Shown: positions 1 through 53,235 of the stretch, one piece after another
Position numbering within the stretch: position 1 is the first letter of the stretch
Layout: every line of letters begins with the position of its first letter
Assembly (NCBI GenBank): GCA_022614735.1
Contig: JAKEHZ010000041.1
Coordinates: 1-53,884, forward strand
Length of the DNA: 53,884 nucleotides
Reading direction: 5' to 3'
Source: Acidobacteriota bacterium
GTDB taxonomy: Bacteria; Acidobacteriota; Blastocatellia; RBC074
The notes under the pieces: generated by a model
Seen by the model: the letters and a program-made list of their open reading frames with translations, nothing else
Databases searched by the model: none
Told to the model about the DNA's origin: nothing
Position numbers and translations under genes: made by a program

Positions 1-209
1 GGGACGAATGCAGCGTTGCTTTTCAAACGATACGAAAAGTGAAGTAGAAGAGAGAATGCGAGGCAACAAGAATTGGCGAAAATAGACGAAACAAGCGAAA
101 ATGGGCACCTTTCGCTTGTTTCGTCTATTTTCGCCAATTCTTGTTGCCTCGCATTCTCTCTTCTACTTCACTTTTCGTATCGTTTGAAAAGCAACGCTGC
201 ATTCGTCCC
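1..209. repeat. Perfect 100-bp inverted repeat (arms 1-100 and 110-209, 9-nt loop ATGGGCACC) that reaches the window edge. The outer ~41 bp of each arm are the fabF 3' coding end and its mirror image.
   Basis: The reverse complement of 1-100 equals 110-209 base for base. The + strand 1-42 reads GTNAALLFKRYEK-stop, identical to the fabF C-terminus encoded on the - strand at 168-209. The inner arm has ~9-nt units (GGCGAAAAT/AGACGAAAC/AAGCGAAAA). Confidence 0.9.
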
Positions 210-1418
210 ACCAAACCCAAAACTATTGGACAACGCGTAACGAATACTCGCCGCGCGCGGCTGGTTCGGTACGAAATCAAGATCGCATTCCGGGTCCGGG
301 GTTTCGTAATTGATCGTCGGCGGCAGCATCTGATGATAGACAGTAAGCGTGGTGACTCCCGCTTCGAGCCCGCCAGCGCCGCCCAGCAAGTGTCCGGTCA
401 TTGATTTGGTCGAGCTGGCTGCGAGTTCATAAGCGTGATTGCCGAAGGCAGATTTGATCGCATTGGTTTCGTTAACATCACCGACCGGAGTCGATGTCCC
501 GTGAACGTTGATGTAATCCACCTCGTTCGGGTCAATTCCTGCATCTTTCATCGTTTTAAGCATAACACGGCGAGGGCCATCCAGATCCGGCATAGTAATA
601 TGGAAAGCATCGCTGGTCATTCCGTAGCCTACGACTTCGGCATAAATCCTGGCGCCCCGCGTCATTGCATGCTCGTGTTCTTCGAGGACCAAAATCCCCG
701 CCCCTTCACCAATGACGAAGCCATCACGGCCTTTGTCAAATGGGCGTGAGGCACTCGGCGGGTCCTCGTTGCGTGTCGAAAGTGCGTGCATTGCCGCAAA
801 TCCGCCAATCGACATCGGTGTAATAGCGCCTTCAGTTCCGCCACAGATCATCGCCGTAGCGTCGCCGCGCTGGATGATTTTGAAACTGTCACCCAGGGCG
901 TGCGCGCCGGAACTGCAAGCCGTCGCAGTGGCGGAGTTCGGCCCTTTCGCTCCGCTGTAGATCGAGACGTAACCTGAGGCGAGGTTGATAATCGATGCCG
1001 GGATGAAGAAGGGTGAGATGCGTCCCGGCCCACCTTCCAACATCTTCGAGTGCTCACGTTCGAAGACGCTGAAACCGCCAATGCCGCTGCCGATGAAAAC
1101 TCCGACCCCTTCCGCGTTCTCCTGAGTGATTTTCAATCCGGAATCAGCGAGCGCCTCTTTCGCAGCCGCGATAGCAAAGTAGATGAAATAGTCCATCTTC
1201 TTGAGTTCTTTCTTCTCGACAAATTTGAGCGGCTCGAATCCCTTGGTTTCAGCAGCGAAACGAACTTTATGTTGGCTGGTGTCGAAGCGCGTGATGTAAT
1301 CCACACCGCTGTGGCCGGCAATCAAACCAGACCATGTCTCCTCGGTTGTGTTGCCGAGCGGGCTGACCAGGCCGATACCGGTGACTACCACTCGCCTCTT
1401 GATTATCTGGTTGTTCAC
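168..1418 (-). CDS. fabF: Beta-ketoacyl-ACP synthase II (KAS II)
   Basis: KRRVVVTGIG N-terminus, active-site Cys in ATACSSGAHA, HGTSTPVGD and GHLLGGAG motifs. The ORF track starts at TTG 1445. I prefer GTG 1418, which is preceded by GAGGAAG. Confidence 0.93.
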   Translation of the reverse strand: MNNQIIKRRVVVTGIGLVSPLGNTTEETWSGLIAGHSGVDYITRFDTSQHKVRFAAETKGFEPLKFVEKKELKKMDYFIYFAIAAAKEALADSGLKITQENAEGVGVFIGSGIGGFSVFEREHSKMLEGGPGRISPFFIPASIINLASGYVSIYSGAKGPNSATATACSSGAHALGDSFKIIQRGDATAMICGGTEGAITPMSIGGFAAMHALSTRNEDPPSASRPFDKGRDGFVIGEGAGILVLEEHEHAMTRGARIYAEVVGYGMTSDAFHITMPDLDGPRRVMLKTMKDAGIDPNEVDYINVHGTSTPVGDVNETNAIKSAFGNHAYELAASSTKSMTGHLLGGAGGLEAGVTTLTVYHQMLPPTINYETPDPECDLDFVPNQPRAASIRYALSNSFGFGGTNAALLFKRYEK

Positions 1419-1438
1419 GAATTTCTTCCTCTTCTGAG

Positions 1439-1461
1439 ATCTCAAATTTGAAATTTGAGAT
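1439..1461. promoter_or_regulatory. 11-bp perfect palindrome ATCTCAAATTT-G-AAATTTGAGAT just upstream of fabF
   Basis: Read directly from the sequence. It lies in the acpP-fabF spacer, 21 nt upstream of the preferred fabF start. Its function (operator or small hairpin) is unknown. Confidence 0.4.
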
Positions 1462-1496
1462 ATGAGATAACGCCACTCCCTGTAGTAGAAACTGAA

Positions 1497-1578
1497 TCAG
1501 CCACAAAAAGACACGAGCGATACAAAAGTAATCCGAAGTTCAATCAGCTTTTGTATATTTAGTGCCTCTTGTGGCTCA
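1497..1578. repeat. Degenerate (~75% complementary) inverted repeat 3' of acpP, possibly a decayed member of the hairpin class
   Basis: TCAGCCACAAAAAGACACGAGCGATACAAAAG pairs with CTTTTGTATATTTAGTGCCTCTTGTGGCTCA. It lies ~30 nt downstream of the acpP stop. Confidence 0.55.
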
Positions 1579-1609
1579 TTCTTTCGCGCGGGCGATGAGA
1601 CTTTAGCGC

Positions 1610-1849
1610 CTATTTTTTGTGCTCATCGATGTAGGCGATGGCATCGCGCACGCTCTGAATCTTTTCGGCCTCTTCGTCAGGGATCTCGATCCCGAACTCC
1701 TCCTCAAAGCGCATTACCAGTTCGACCGTGTCGAGCGAATCTGCTCCGAGATCGTCGATGAAACGCGCATTCGGGGTTACTTCCGATTCATCCACCCCAA
1801 GCTCATCTACAATTATCTGTTTAACCTTATCTTCGATTGATTCTGCCAT
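1610..1849 (-). CDS. acpP: Acyl carrier protein
   Basis: [12 protein letters not shown] phosphopantetheine-attachment motif. ATG at 1849 is preceded by GGAGGAAC. The track ORF begins at an upstream TTG (1861). Confidence 0.95.
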
Positions 1850-1863
1850 GAGTTCCTCCAAAA

Positions 1864-1981
1864 GTGATTGCGGACTTATGATTGCGGATTGCGGATTGCG
1901 GATTGCGGATTGATTGCGGGAAACTTCTCTTCAAATCCGCAATCCGCAATCCGCAATCCGCAATCATTAGTCCGCGATCAC
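1864..1981. repeat. Family A hairpin: (GATTGCG)n heptamer arms with a GTGATYGCGGACTWATG outer stem
   Basis: Arms ~1864-1911 and 1933-1981 have 2 mismatches. The element fills the whole fabG-acpP spacer, and the right arm contains the fabG stop codon (1978-1980). Confidence 0.9.
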
Positions 1982-51570: not shown

Positions 51571-51622
51571 ACTTTTTCTTTCTCTCCTTTATTCAACCGT
51601 AATGACCGACAAATGGAGGGAC

Positions 51623-51700
51623 AGAGGATGACGGAACAAACGGAAATAACGGAACAAACGGAAATTCTCTAGGATATTTCCGTTTGTTCCGTCATCCTCT
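51623..51700. repeat. Family B hairpin with unequal arms (the left arm carries an extra 18-nt unit)
   Basis: Left arm is AGAGGATGACGGAACAAACGGAAATAACGGAACAAACGGAAAT (51623-51665). Right arm is ATTTCCGTTTGTTCCGTCATCCTCT (51676-51700). Confidence 0.9.
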
Positions 51701-51756
51701 CTGACTTGGATTACCGTTATCCACGATTAAGTGTGGTGCTACCATTTGTACACGCC

Positions 51757-52407
51757 TCATTTAGCTTTATAGTGCCGTTCGCTGATCTCTTTGATATCCA
51801 CCCAGGCTTTGCGTACTCTACCTGAAAACAGCAGCACGTCCTCGAGGCTGATATCGGCCATAAAACTTTTTATTTCACCTGCAAACTCTAACTCGCCCCC
51901 TTCGTTATACTGAGTCTTCGCCCAATGCAGCATAACCTCGCTTGGGATCTTTTTATATTTTAGCCAGATCATAAGCGCGTACATCTTCAACTGACCACTC
52001 TCATTGACCATTTCCTGGTTCCACAGCCTACCGCTTTTGTACTCTCCAATACGAAGTCGCTTTTCGTCAAATCCGTCCAGCACACCATAAAGGGGAACCT
52101 CTAACCCCTCTAAGGCTGCTTCTATTTTGAACTCTCTTTGTGGATAACTGGGTAAGACAGCAAGAAGGTTATCAAGGACATCGTCGCCGGTCTCTTTTTG
52201 CATCTCTAAGGCTTGCGCGAGACTCTTGCCAAGGCGCATCGCCTCTGTTGTCGGGTCATCTTCTCCGTAGATATACTTCTTCACATAGAGGTCAGGGCTT
52301 CGTTCGAAGAGCTGGATCTGCGACCAGCTCAAGTATGGACGGGGGCTATAAAAGCTTATATCACCTGTCTGCGTTCTACTTAGGTTCATATAGACCGCCT
52401 TCCCCAA
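51757..52407 (-). CDS. PD-(D/E)XK nuclease superfamily protein (RecB/Cas4-like fold, no Cys cluster seen)
   Basis: D...E-x-K arrangement (LDGFD ... IGEYKSG) and QLKMYALM downstream. Family-level inference only. The start is 52407 or 52389. Confidence 0.55.
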   Translation of the reverse strand: MGKAVYMNLSRTQTGDISFYSPRPYLSWSQIQLFERSPDLYVKKYIYGEDDPTTEAMRLGKSLAQALEMQKETGDDVLDNLLAVLPSYPQREFKIEAALEGLEVPLYGVLDGFDEKRLRIGEYKSGRLWNQEMVNESGQLKMYALMIWLKYKKIPSEVMLHWAKTQYNEGGELEFAGEIKSFMADISLEDVLLFSGRVRKAWVDIKEISERHYKAK

Positions 52408-52470
52408 AGCAGCTATCCTTTTTTAACAAGCACCATGGCGCGGACCGTGTGGAACAGTTGTCCGGCAATG

Positions 52471-52806
52471 CTATTTCAAACAAGCATCCAGGATTGCCAA
52501 GGCATCCTCTACCAATTCTGATGGCGCTTTCTGGATGAATTTCGCTTGCCGCGTTGCGTAATCTATTGATTTCACTTGCTCGACCATTATAAAACCGCTC
52601 AACTTCATCCCCACAGGCAAGCGCAAATGGAAGGGGATTTGGCGATCTGCGGTGGTCAACGGGCATACTATCGCCAGCTTTGTATATTTATTGAACAAAT
52701 AATGGCTCAGTACCAACGCTGGCCGCCGCCCCTTCTGTTCATGTCCTGACTGTGGATCAAATGTCAAACTTATAAAATCACCTTTGCGAGGAACGTATAT
52801 CGCCAT
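52471..52806 (-). CDS. mazF: MazF/PemK family type II toxin (mRNA interferase)
   Basis: VPRKGDFISLTFDPQSGHEQKGRRPALVLS ... IVCPLT ... VEQVKSID, typical of MazF/ChpB. Confidence 0.88.
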   Translation of the reverse strand: MAIYVPRKGDFISLTFDPQSGHEQKGRRPALVLSHYLFNKYTKLAIVCPLTTADRQIPFHLRLPVGMKLSGFIMVEQVKSIDYATRQAKFIQKAPSELVEDALAILDACLK

Positions 52807-53046
52807 CTACCATTCCTCTCTACCAACCGGACGGCCGAACGATTCTTCGCCGCCACGGTAGTTCTTGGGCATCCGAGCCACCATTTCTTCCAACACGAAC
52901 TTAGGTCTGGCCTTCTTGATTATGATTTCATTTTTTCCCACGATGATCTCAACATCGTCGCCAATACTGATTCCAGCATCATCAAGCACGTGCTTTGTCA
53001 ATCTTAGGCCTTGACTGTTCCCCCACTTTTGAATCTTTGCGACCAT
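52807..53046 (-). CDS. mazE: MazE/AbrB (SpoVT) family antitoxin
   Basis: KIQKWGNSQGLRLTKHVLDDAGI looped-hinge motif. Its stop directly abuts the mazF ATG. Confidence 0.85.
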   Translation of the reverse strand: MVAKIQKWGNSQGLRLTKHVLDDAGISIGDDVEIIVGKNEIIIKKARPKFVLEEMVARMPKNYRGGEESFGRPVGREEW

Positions 53047-53130
53047 TACTATCTACCTCGATTCTTAGAGTATAGCCCTTGTATATACCTATTTTGAAAA
53101 GATGTCAAAGAAGGACACTCGCGGCCTGTT

Positions 53131-53235
53131 GGTGCGCCCGCGTCCTCGCGGGCAGGTTGCGGAAGGGCGCATTTCCAGGGGATGGGCTACTTACCCAGCC
53201 TGCCCGCGAGGACGCGGGCGCACCGTTTCCGCAAC
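53131..53235. repeat. Family C element, copy 2 (perfect arms; conserved spacer; extra TTCCGCAAC tail)
   Basis: 53131-53156 is the exact reverse complement of 53199-53224. The spacer is roughly three-quarters identical by eye to copy 1. 53227-53235 is complementary to GTTGCGGAA at 53157-53165. Confidence 0.9.

Follow-up and report, generated by a model that had tools for sequence, protein, structure and literature searches.

Long intergenic hairpins in a Blastocatellia contig as a probable lineage-wide population of small palindromic repeat elements

Introduction

Among described analogues of the repeats treated here, which are long, mostly near-perfect hairpins lying between the genes of a 53,884-nucleotide stretch of DNA from an Acidobacteriota bacterium (Blastocatellia; RBC074), the short tandemly repeated repetitive (STRR) heptamers of cyanobacteria, reportedly described by Mazel et al. 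in 1990, are a close one. Of the inverted heptamer arrays of Xanthomonas (unit GGGAATC) and Nostoc (unit GGGGAYT), about 90% are intergenic; their mean distance to the upstream stop codon is 28 nt, and some overlap it (PMC4692102). REPINs, the hairpin-forming doublets of repetitive extragenic palindromic (REP) sequences, show compensatory changes and variable spacers (PMC3116915), and template switching both creates perfect stems and maintains or repairs them (PMC8794818).

The stretch analysed here, hereafter the window, comprises positions 1 to 53,884 of contig JAKEHZ010000041.1 in assembly GCA_022614735.1, which was assembled from a metagenome and represents an uncultured soil acidobacterium. 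Its hairpins probably belong to a population of small palindromic repeats that do not code for protein and occur lineage-wide in Blastocatellia-type Acidobacteriota, and are of two kinds: tandem-unit hairpins, which carry arrays of 7–10-nt units (GATTGCG, ACGGAAMAA, ACAGGATTT, CAGTTTT and others), and REPIN-like inverted doublets. This reading is carried by the recurrence of the same arms at many non-orthologous sites, by presence and absence that differ at orthologous sites, and by gene 3' ends that have been overwritten.

Sequences and methods

Hairpins were located with an inverted-repeat search and an ungapped hairpin finder (arms of at least 12 nt; score of at least 25 for the strong set), folding was done with ViennaRNA, tandem units were identified with Tandem Repeats Finder (TRF), and 20 dinucleotide-preserving shuffles served as background. 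Family B denotes hairpins with ACGGAAC/ACGGAAMAA-type arms. A metagenome set of at least 120 stretches (736 kb), picked for the family-B pattern, was collected by one scan with ACGGAACAAACGRAAAT; about 35 metagenome matches to a 17-mer fell by chance in the coding regions of organisms that are not related and were excluded. Open reading frames (ORFs) outside the window were called mechanically.

Comparison sequences are cited by their L numbers. The seven intergenic regions of the fab cluster were compared across five genomes, namely the window and the Blastocatellia/Acidobacteria metagenome-assembled genomes (MAGs) L002, L003, L006 and L013, to whose PlsX that of the window is 83–88% identical. 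The gene map of the window was drawn from Pfam matches of about 40 of its ORFs and includes a yceD-rpmF-plsX-fabD-fabG-acpP-fabF cluster, rtcR/rtcBA, transporters, two TonB receptors with the acidobacterial CarboxypepD_reg and OMP_b-brl_4 architecture, a pyrroloquinoline quinone (PQQ) dehydrogenase and MazF.

Hairpins and their support in independent assemblies

A first-pass annotation, made from the sequence alone, had claimed about 20 long inverted-repeat loci in the window, and these were recovered at the same positions. The search returned 62 inverted pairs, the top-ranked of which are exactly those loci, and the hairpin finder gave 20 non-overlapping ungapped inverted repeats whose arms reach 12 nt or more, including 16 with a score of at least 25, against 0–3 in each shuffled window (n = 20; mean 0.3, longest arm 14). 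All 21 loci listed in that annotation fold into one dominant long stem, with minimum free energies (MFEs) of -21 to -188 kcal/mol, and periods of 7, 9, 10 and 18 nt occur within the arms (TRF). Summed, the hairpins span about 2.2 kb, which is about 4% of the window and roughly 35–40% of its non-coding DNA.

Contigs of GCA_973348325.1 and Logan unitigs of SRR16971103, which are 99.7–100% identical to parts of the window, are independent assemblies of the same population and agree with it at 100% identity over the hairpins that they span. The independent contig L084 is identical across the rtcR hairpin at 10907–11036, and the hairpins at 18937–19024 and 20540–20573 are also spanned by contig 318 of GCA_973348325.1, as inferred from coordinate mapping. 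Contigs of the latter assembly end within the four longest hairpins, at 1–209, 5781–5902 (inside which contigs 423 and 318 both end), 22292–22444 (contig 318 stops at the end of its first arm) and 44106–44248 (contig 252 begins inside it), and Logan unitigs stop within the first arm of the longest hairpins. Two metagenome contigs, L173 (2535–2635) and L182 (2–116), end in one palindrome with their true flanks on opposite sides; they are the two sides of one locus broken at that palindrome, which indicates that long palindromes break short-read assemblies.

The palindrome 3' of fabF (1–209) has 100-nt arms with 100% complementarity. Its outer edge coincides exactly with the start of the window, L001 carries it at a contig end, 7 nt further out and with the loop inverted, and the outer 42 nt of each arm consist of the conserved coding end of fabF and its reverse complement. 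At a contig end in L128 (10424–10632), a palindrome with 101-nt arms takes in the 3' coding end of the upstream gene. Because the fabF-copy outer part of 1–209 stands exactly at the contig end in two assemblies, the arm length there is not to be trusted. The inner 58 nt or so of each arm, with GCGAAAA/GACGAAACAA-type inner units that match the ACGAAA-family hairpins of L159, L175 and L188, are taken as real, and the rest is probably an assembly fold-back.

Families shared between loci and genomes

That most loci carry private sequences, as had been proposed from the window alone, is contradicted by comparison: in the window itself 9 of the 19 scored hairpins can be grouped into families, and all but four of the others have relatives in related MAGs or soil metagenome contigs. 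GATTGCG arms occur at four loci (1864, 2726, 5044 and the solo array at 26114) and ACGGAACAAACGGAAAT (ACGGAAMAA) arms at three (30661, 46803 and 51623). Sensitive comparison linked supposedly private arms to other sequences, that at 22292 to L105, 10907 to L125, 35956 to L201 and L144, 29362 (by eye) to L117, the core of the 44106 hairpin to the CAGTACCGCGAGCGGTAGCGA family and the inner part of 1–209 to the ACGAAA family.

Among related genomes, L003 carries six family-B hairpins in 21 kb, the GATTGCG, ACAGGATTT and CACAAAAAGGC types are common to L013, L002 and L006, and heptamer hairpins of CGTGAGG and GAAGTCG units are found in L015 and L005, two acidobacterial contigs that are less closely related. 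The metagenome scan for family B yielded at least 63 hairpins and roughly ten solo arms in its at least 120 stretches, and identical arm sequences of 34–43 nt stand at many unrelated loci in different genomes. Other tandem-unit hairpins in the 736 kb are built of AGATGCT, GGGAGTR, CACGAAGA, CACAGATTT, GGGACTTAT, CAGTTTT, CATTTTC and GATTGCG units, and REPIN-like families are present there as well. Outside Acidobacteriota, 4 of 65 PlsX loci have hairpins scoring at least 20 (at most 2 each) and 0 of 65 have one scoring at least 30. The load varies among close relatives, with 16 hairpins of score at least 25 in the window and 6 of score at least 20 in L003. Several distinct families are thus present, in agreement with the earlier view that the hairpins are not a single REP or MITE (miniature inverted-repeat transposable element) family.

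A composite element of about 215 bp with a central family-B hairpin is present in seven or eight copies (L100, L102 at 3780–4010, L109, L131, L168, L180, L186 and L203). Its ends are GGTAG...CTACC terminal inverted repeats (GGTAGnTCYACAYTTAACCGTGG), and target-site duplications of 7–8 bp accompany the copies in L102, L109, L168 and L203 (AAAACGC, TCCGTCTT, ATCTTTA and CGGAGAAA); this composite is a bona fide MITE. The possibility that L100, L102, L109, L131, L168, L186 and L203 are orthologues was rejected, since alignment shows unrelated flanks, which identifies these loci as copies of the composite MITE. The first-pass annotation had also considered that private arms might turn out to be multi-copy REP- or MITE-like sequences with ordinary target-site duplications; as regards copy number this is largely the case, and duplications were found only at the one composite MITE.

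Palindromes are also nested within one another. In L139, L155 and L164, other palindromes replace the inner part of family B at a fixed junction, which lies between ...ACGGAAATRAC and TG... in one arm and between ...CA and GTYATTTCCGT... in the other. Another apex insert is found in L173/L182 and in L180, where it lies within the hairpin of the MITE, and at 44106 in the window a REP-like core is nested in a CAGTTTT hairpin. These cases indicate that insertion or exchange at hairpin apexes is recurrent.

Orthologous regions of the fab cluster

Some hairpin follows rpmF, fabG, acpP and fabF in all five genomes, with sequences that are interchangeable. After fabF there are textbook terminators with a T-tract in L002, L006 and L013, a family-B hairpin in L003 and the long palindrome in the window, and after rpmF a different conserved hairpin (GAAAGGTGAATG) is carried by L002, L006 and L013. 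Hairpins between yceD and rpmF, plsX and fabD, and fabD and fabG are sporadic and belong to families that differ between genomes. The fabG-acpP hairpin is orthologous in four genomes (the window, L002, L006 and L013), in which it starts in the stop codon (ATGTGATTG...), and has about 2 units per arm in the relatives and about 5 in the window, both arms having expanded in the window lineage only. The acpP-fabF hairpin stands at the same position in the window (1497–1578) and, at approximate coordinates, in L002 (7990–8085), L006 (13120–13215) and L013 (13170–13270), with a conserved structure (GCCACAAAAAGGC...ACAAAAG...CTTTTGT...GCCTTTTTGTGGC), an inner stem that varies somewhat and no Rfam match.

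Two genes of the cluster have remodelled 3' ends. The yceD gene (5143–5655) is cut by about 20 codons where its relatives run on (…PIDPRWQALADLK…), and its Pfam YceD match ends at profile position 103 of 119; the hairpin supplies an early stop, so that the protein is without the conserved C-terminal DPRW...L tail kept in all four relatives. In fabD (2771–3715), the alignment to orthologues stops at residue 297 of 314, and the hairpin at 2726–2830 is absent from the orthologous region of L002, L003, L006 and L013. One arm of the fabD hairpin has one 7-nt unit fewer in L001, with a predicted product of 306 aa versus 314 aa. The behaviour seen in the fab cluster is insertional and in part damaging, and not that of a tuned regulatory design.

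Covariation between arms

In 56 family-B copies aligned by their outermost ACGG, the two bases before it vary strongly but stay paired (TA/AT/CG/GC in 47 of 56; TA/AT/GC in 50 of 56). Relative to the family consensus, 33 copies have 64 sites with the same derived base in both arms, where 4.2 would be expected if the arms changed independently, and 124 sites changed in one arm only; several family-B subfamilies have a 1-nt insertion in both arms. RNAalifold and pair counts gave 40 pairs, of which 15 have changed on both sides, with 94.9% of cells paired, values reached in 0 of 500 shuffles and far from reached in slid registers. Sense-strand mismatches comprise 32 of G·U type and 37 of A·C type (p = 0.63), and so give no sign of a preferential tolerance of RNA wobble pairs.

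Units change in concert both across and between arms (ACGGAAC versus ACGAAAC; GCCAAGA versus ACGAAGA). The outer stem of the GATTGCG hairpins, which had been described as unique, consists of degenerate heptamers (GACTACT; TRF period 21) and the homogeneous units adjoin the loop, which suggests that turnover is fastest at the apex. Slippage has left its signs in a one-unit, single-arm difference between near-identical assemblies, in unequal arms and in an 18-nt single-arm deletion in L168; the unequal unit numbers reported earlier are seen at 5044–5146 and 51623–51700. The suggestion that an arm-matching process acts in place together with slippage fits the compensated substitutions and indels, the unit differences and the fabG-acpP expansion, and the covariation as a whole points to symmetrisation at the DNA level (template switching) combined with slippage.

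Position relative to genes and transcription signals

No hairpin of the window lies in a true gene body. Among its intergenic regions of at least 120 nt, a hairpin is present in 14 of 15 tandem or convergent regions versus 0–1 of 3 divergent ones; the share of divergent regions with a hairpin is 24% in the wider metagenome set, a figure that depends on crude ORF calls and family-B-selected loci. Most hairpins lie 0–50 nt 3' of a stop codon, and for fabG, yceD, fabD, rtcR, both TonB receptors and the isomerase the stop is within the hairpin or 0–7 nt away. In co-directional regions the stop codon upstream is nearer to them than the start codon of the gene that follows, and several nonetheless end right at the ribosome-binding site of that gene.

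The statement that nearly all hairpins directly follow a stop codon describes most loci and fails for 32006–32077, which lies in the 5' leader of a nucleoside symporter gene; the hairpin at 29362–29459 falls within a mechanical ORF, the true start of which is probably downstream. The proposed architecture of an outer stem with tandem units at the loop is likewise found in many hairpins, but those at 18937–19024, 38333–38427 and 53131–53235 have no tandem units, and at 44087–44267 (less clearly at 35956–36016) the units lie outside an inner unique core. The 5' arm is richer in G than in C, on both strands, in 14 versus 3 window hairpins (17 informative, one further tied), and hairpins outside family B have a G-rich 5' arm in 46 versus 24 cases. 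An A/T polarity of the arms (A-rich 5', T-rich 3'), resembling that of a bidirectional terminator, was considered and rejected as a general feature; it holds for family B only, other hairpins dividing 34 versus 35.

The first-pass judgement that these are not ordinary Rho-independent terminators is upheld by stems of 26–70+ bp and by the lack of a consistent U-tract in the 40 nt downstream of all window hairpins. Arms range from 26 to 100 nt and loops from 3 to 43 nt, and only the hairpin at 20540–20573 is within the size range of terminators. In the window, a scan for the intrinsic-terminator consensus gave 48 sites versus about 56 expected, almost all intragenic and unrelated to the hairpins, a sigma-70 promoter consensus scan gave neither enrichment nor a relation to the hairpins, and Rfam 15 gave no match at gathering score. 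A canonical intrinsic terminator stands at 29881–29928 in the convergent region after the cytochrome c gene (GGCGAGTG...CACTCGCC then ATTTTCATTTTTGT), from which it follows that the organism still uses ordinary terminators.

Individual hairpins of the window

All hairpins of the window, including that at 1–209, are assigned to the reverse strand, except for those at 29241–29315, 29362–29459 and 46803–46905, which are on the forward strand, and the array at 26114–26145, which has no strand assignment. In the fab cluster, the imperfect acpP/fabF hairpin (1497–1578; MFE -32.3 kcal/mol) is of the GAGCCACAAAAAGGCAC...GCCTTTTTGTGGCT type. It is followed by three GATTGCG hairpins: one at 1864–1981, which holds the fabG stop, ends 14 nt before the acpP start and has 48-nt arms with 2 mismatches; one at 2726–2830 over the 3' end of fabD, the last 17 codons of which are hairpin sequence; and one at 5044–5146, which supplies the yceD stop. 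An imperfect CATCC(C/T)T heptamer hairpin (4753–4817; TRF period 7; MFE -21.3 kcal/mol) lies after rpmF, and the hairpin at 5781–5902 (MFE -106 kcal/mol) has a unique outer stem, GCGCAGAG-type units of 10–11 nt and no relative found. The remaining GATTGCG locus, in the divergent region between the TonB-receptor and symporter genes, is a solo AATCCGC array of 4.6 units (26114–26145), a GATTGCG arm without its partner. Direct (non-inverted) tandem repeats, for example of CCGGATTGTGATGCG x3 or of CAAATTT units, were observed in the same intergenic regions of relatives (L003 9392–10006 and 12121–12211; the fabD-fabG spacer of L013/L002), so that tandem-unit arrays also occur without a partner arm.

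The hairpin at 10907–11036 begins 1 nt past the rtcR stop and has 50-nt arms with 1 mismatch, CACGGATT units near the loop and a stem, ATTCACCACGGATTGACAC, that matches L125 at 18 of 19 positions. The divergent rtcR/rtcB region contains at 12809–12871 a sigma-54-like -24/-12 element (TGGCAC-N5-GTGC), directly followed, upstream of rtcB, by a perfect 24-nt tandem repeat in two copies (TATAGACTGTCGTCGCAATGATCT), and both may be part of an RtcR-controlled leader. A perfect palindrome with 42-nt arms and no relative found is located between the PQQ-propeller and EamA genes (18937–19024). A short perfect hairpin with a 15-bp stem (20540–20573) lies across the junction of a tandem paralogue pair (19056–22064), two genes 6 nt apart that encode PQQ_2 beta-propeller and EF-hand motifs. 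The perfect palindrome at 22292–22444, which starts from the base after a TonB-receptor stop, has 70-nt arms and CAAAAANGG units near the loop, and over its inner 21 nt it does not differ from the hairpin of L105 at 4918–5000.

After the major facilitator superfamily (MFS) transporter gene there is a hairpin of the ACAGGATTT family (29241–29315), which is also found in L013 at 5700–5778 and 9570–9656. The perfect hairpin before the cytochrome c gene (29362–29459) has a GAAAAAGATCAACC outer stem and CGCCAAGA units, and by eye resembles L117 5840–5924 (GAAAATCAACC with ACGAAGA units). Family B is represented by a hairpin with perfect 41-nt arms of the ACGGAAC type after the nucleoside symporter gene (30661–30753), by one between the convergent dipeptidase and MutS2 genes (46803–46905) and by one with unequal unit numbers in its arms (51623–51700). 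The 5'-leader hairpin of the nucleoside symporter gene (32006–32077) is followed by AAGGAGA and ATG and, given its location in a divergent region, does not count among the 3'-end elements. A perfect TCATTTN-unit hairpin with 29-nt arms (35956–36016), the units of which match L201 and L144, comes after the histidine kinase gene. The nested hairpin at 44087–44267, with 63-nt arms, has outer CAGTTTT-unit stems, as in a hairpin of L158, and an inner GC-rich palindrome, CAGTACGGGGAGCGTCAGCGACC, that matches the REP-like family CAGTACCGGGAGCGGTAGCGACC at 20 of 23 positions.

The REPIN-like element at 38333–38427 consists of two inverted GGTGCGCCCGCGNCCTCGCGGGCAGG repeats, each a short palindrome, with a 43-nt spacer, and a second copy lies at 53131–53235; over its full length the first is 89% identical to 53131–53224. 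A GC-rich REPIN-like family, also an inverted doublet (GGATCAGTACCGCGAGCGGTAGCGAGCGTGGCT), was observed in many soil contigs, for example in L132 (2466–2557), L137 (5025–5113 and 14372–14459), L152 (6849–6938) and L178 (2717–2801), and its spacer is present in either orientation, those of L132 and L137 being mutual reverse complements. At 52471–53100, a MazF toxin gene has a short upstream ORF (MVAKIQKWGN...) that resembles MazE/AbrB-type antitoxins; the neighbours of this locus are a PD-(D/E)XK nuclease-family gene and a family-B hairpin.

Discussion

If the hairpins are a population of palindromic repeat elements, then at each hairpin already in place replication slippage would add and remove units, most actively by the loop, and template switching within the palindrome, or repair of an extruded hairpin, would copy one arm onto the other, which would keep the arms in Watson-Crick complementarity and yield compensated substitutions and indels. 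Tolerance of insertion, possibly joined by a preference for hairpins already present, would mainly explain why they sit just 3' of stop codons and are rare in divergent promoter regions. At sites that require a 3' hairpin, as after rpmF, fabG, acpP and fabF, the elements could take that role, and a function as terminator or mRNA stabiliser would then plausibly be a secondary use.

Several points weigh against the repeat-element reading. No transposase, RAYT (REP-associated tyrosine transposase) or Y1_Tnp match was found by Pfam among the approximately 40 window ORFs scanned, and an all-against-all comparison of 663 ORFs from 120 family-B loci gave no enriched neighbour protein. Plain hairpins, both in the window and at the family-B loci, are without target-site duplications, which leaves true transposition putative for them. 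In many hairpins the mid-stem is family sequence and the loop and outer stem are specific to the locus; simple cut-and-paste or copy-and-paste movement predicts otherwise, and the pattern calls for insertion at the apex, recombination of palindromes with one another or a rapid turnover of loops. The hairpins at 18937, 5781, 20540 and 32008 have no relative in the window, the related MAGs or the metagenome loci searched. Outside the window, the G·U test and the statistics on intergenic types use crude ORF calls and loci selected for family B, the metagenome contigs (GC content 50–61%) gave tblastn matches to window proteins that were too sparse for a taxonomic assignment, and some compensated changes are inherited within subfamilies, so that independent events are fewer than sites. 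That inheritance notwithstanding, the varied pair types and paired indels require either strong selection or arm-to-arm copying.

It is scarcely credible that all palindromes are artefacts of assembly or library preparation (fold-back chimeras) and not genomic. The opening of the window at the outer edge of 1–209, the ending of L001 in that palindrome with an inverted loop, the coding sequence within the contig-end palindrome of L128 and the breaking of short-read contigs in the longest hairpins all favour such an origin, but contig-internal hairpins are identical in independent assemblies, as L084 is over 10907–11036, the same families recur across many projects and assemblers, orthologous hairpins are kept across species, and the contig-end palindrome of L173/L182 runs on into true flanks on both sides. 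Confined to the outer arms of 1–209, an artefactual origin is about evenly balanced with a genomic one. Each palindrome might alternatively have been made wholly in place by fold-back or template-switch synthesis and slippage and be immobile, with similar units arising by convergence. The compensated substitutions and indels, the locus-specific outer stems and loops, the expansion of the orthologous fabG-acpP hairpin, the four hairpins without relatives and the 1–209 arm that copies adjacent coding sequence are in its favour. Identical 34–43-nt arms at many unrelated loci and genomes, however, rule out convergence; copies also lie within a MITE that has target-site duplications, relatives have empty orthologous sites at which the sequence is cleanly replaced, and the coding copy in 1–209 is at a contig end and probably an artefact. 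For the family hairpins a wholly in-place origin is largely refuted, and as an account of the palindromes in general it is highly improbable.

A further explanation makes selection on RNA primary, the hairpins marking 3' ends (as terminators that need no U-tract, as obstacles to 3' exonucleases or as sites for RNase III) and the families being copies of successful designs. This would account for the contrast between non-divergent (14 of 15) and divergent (0–1 of 3) regions, the many hairpins that start 0–7 nt past a stop codon, the constant presence of a hairpin after rpmF, fabG, acpP and fabF in five genomes despite differing sequence, the repeat hairpins at the positions of canonical terminators in relatives, the lack of enrichment of consensus terminators in the window and the stem covariation; in Xanthomonas, moreover, comparable heptamer arrays coincide with the start or stop of transcripts more frequently than control arrays do (PMC4692102). 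It agrees poorly with the absence of a sense-strand G·U preference, the sporadic presence at other orthologous sites and the very unequal load between close relatives. Hairpins also lie within an essential operon where there is no room for a promoter (fabD-fabG and fabG-acpP) and truncate conserved protein tails, some are in 5' leaders or divergent regions (24% of the latter in the wider set), a normal terminator still follows the cytochrome c gene, and solo arms and nested copies resemble decay and insertion, not design. The strong selection for long double-stranded RNA 3' ends that the first-pass annotation had offered as one explanation gains no positive support and is weakened by the missing G·U bias, the sporadic orthologous presence and the damaged C-termini; a primary RNA role is considered unlikely, a secondary one conceivable. 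A role at the DNA level, as cruciforms or sites for repeat-binding proteins involved in supercoiling or the nucleoid, as proposed for bacterial interspersed mosaic elements (BIMEs) with IHF and gyrase, is very doubtful. The strand symmetry of the hairpins (perfect Watson-Crick arms, no sense bias, a G-rich 5' arm in 14 of 17 informative window hairpins) and the periodic 7–10-nt units, which could be protein-binding registers, are compatible with it; no candidate binding protein was found, unit sequences are many in one genome, presence at orthologous sites is sporadic, and the data require no DNA-level function.

The preferred reading, a lineage-wide population of palindromic repeat elements, can be extended to a previously undescribed class of self-symmetrising palindromic elements in Blastocatellia that grow and spread through their apexes, which is a speculative proposal with a small chance of being correct. 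In such a class, the loop of a hairpin would receive further units or entire foreign palindromes, which template switching would then reproduce in the opposite arm, so that palindromes come to lie inside palindromes. It is similarly doubtful, if conceivable, that in some lineages they have displaced U-tract terminators as the customary structure of gene 3' ends. If true, the proposal would call for a so far unrecognised mechanism or enzyme that mobilises sequence to apexes.

The window offers a dense and diverse hairpin-repeat population in a poorly studied, mostly uncultured soil phylum. It is also a natural data set on palindrome perfection that bears on the reading of covariation as evidence for functional RNA, as compensated indels together with the absence of a G·U signature favour arm copying at the DNA level. 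Because short-read assemblies break in hairpins, acidobacterial MAGs are fragmented exactly there and the hairpins are under-reported; they may also give rise to palindromic contig ends, which calls for caution when MAGs of this lineage are assembled. The remodelled gene ends of YceD and FabD and the location in an essential operon indicate that the elements may affect expression.

Comparison with known systems

Literature searches on such elements in Acidobacteria/Blastocatellia found nothing specific. The hairpins resemble Rho-independent terminators in being stem-loops just past stop codons, at the terminator positions of relatives, but differ from them in stem length (26–70+ bp versus about 5–15 bp), in having no consistent U-tract and in lying, in several cases, within an operon or in 5' leaders. 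CRISPR arrays, with direct repeats of 24–48 nt and unique spacers, are unlike these contiguous 7–10-mers arranged as inverted arms. Quasi-palindrome correction by template switch (PMC8794818, PMC5453318) yields perfect arms in one event and multi-base compensated changes, including indels, without G·U intermediates; it is a mutational mechanism, not an element family, and would here act repeatedly on dispersed repeats, a situation of which literature searches found no description.

MITEs such as Correia, RUP and Nezha (PMC3184786) are similarly short, non-coding and intergenic, have inverted-repeat ends and sometimes extend over gene ends, whereas the plain hairpins are inverted repeats along their whole length, have no target-site duplication and no known parent insertion sequence. 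With REP sequences and BIMEs, the hairpins share the confinement of many copies to extragenic space; REP units are imperfect palindromes of 20–40 nt with a terminal GTAG/CGTC, while tandem-unit hairpins are 60–150 nt long with untagged ends, GTAG being found only internally, for example in CAGTAGTCC of GATTGCG hairpins and in AAGTAGCCC, which belongs to the 38333/53131 spacer.

The likeness to REPINs lies in multi-copy intergenic hairpins of about 70–120 nt, a load that differs between close relatives, a spacer or loop that is less conserved than the arms and common compensatory changes between arms. The REPIN layout, in which a spacer separates two inverted units that each contain a short palindrome and the whole forms one long hairpin, is seen at 38333–38427 and 53131–53235 and in the metagenome family GGATCAGTACCGCGAGCGGTAGCGAGCGTGGCT, and not in the tandem-unit hairpins, which have no internal palindrome per arm and no terminal GTAG/CGTC tag, are built of 7–10-nt unit arrays in many families, and have no RAYT in the window.

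With the heptamer arrays of Xanthomonas and Nostoc, the tandem-unit hairpins share tandem heptamers near or over the upstream stop, often as convergent pairs able to form a stem-loop. Those genomes each have one dominant G-rich unit capable of forming a G-quadruplex, whereas the window units (7–11 nt; GATTGCG, ACGGAAC, ACAGGATTT, CAGTTTT) are of many kinds and contain no G3 runs. The hairpins described here are further distinguished by a unique or degenerate outer stem, by near-perfect long palindromes, by nesting and by their occurrence in a different phylum.

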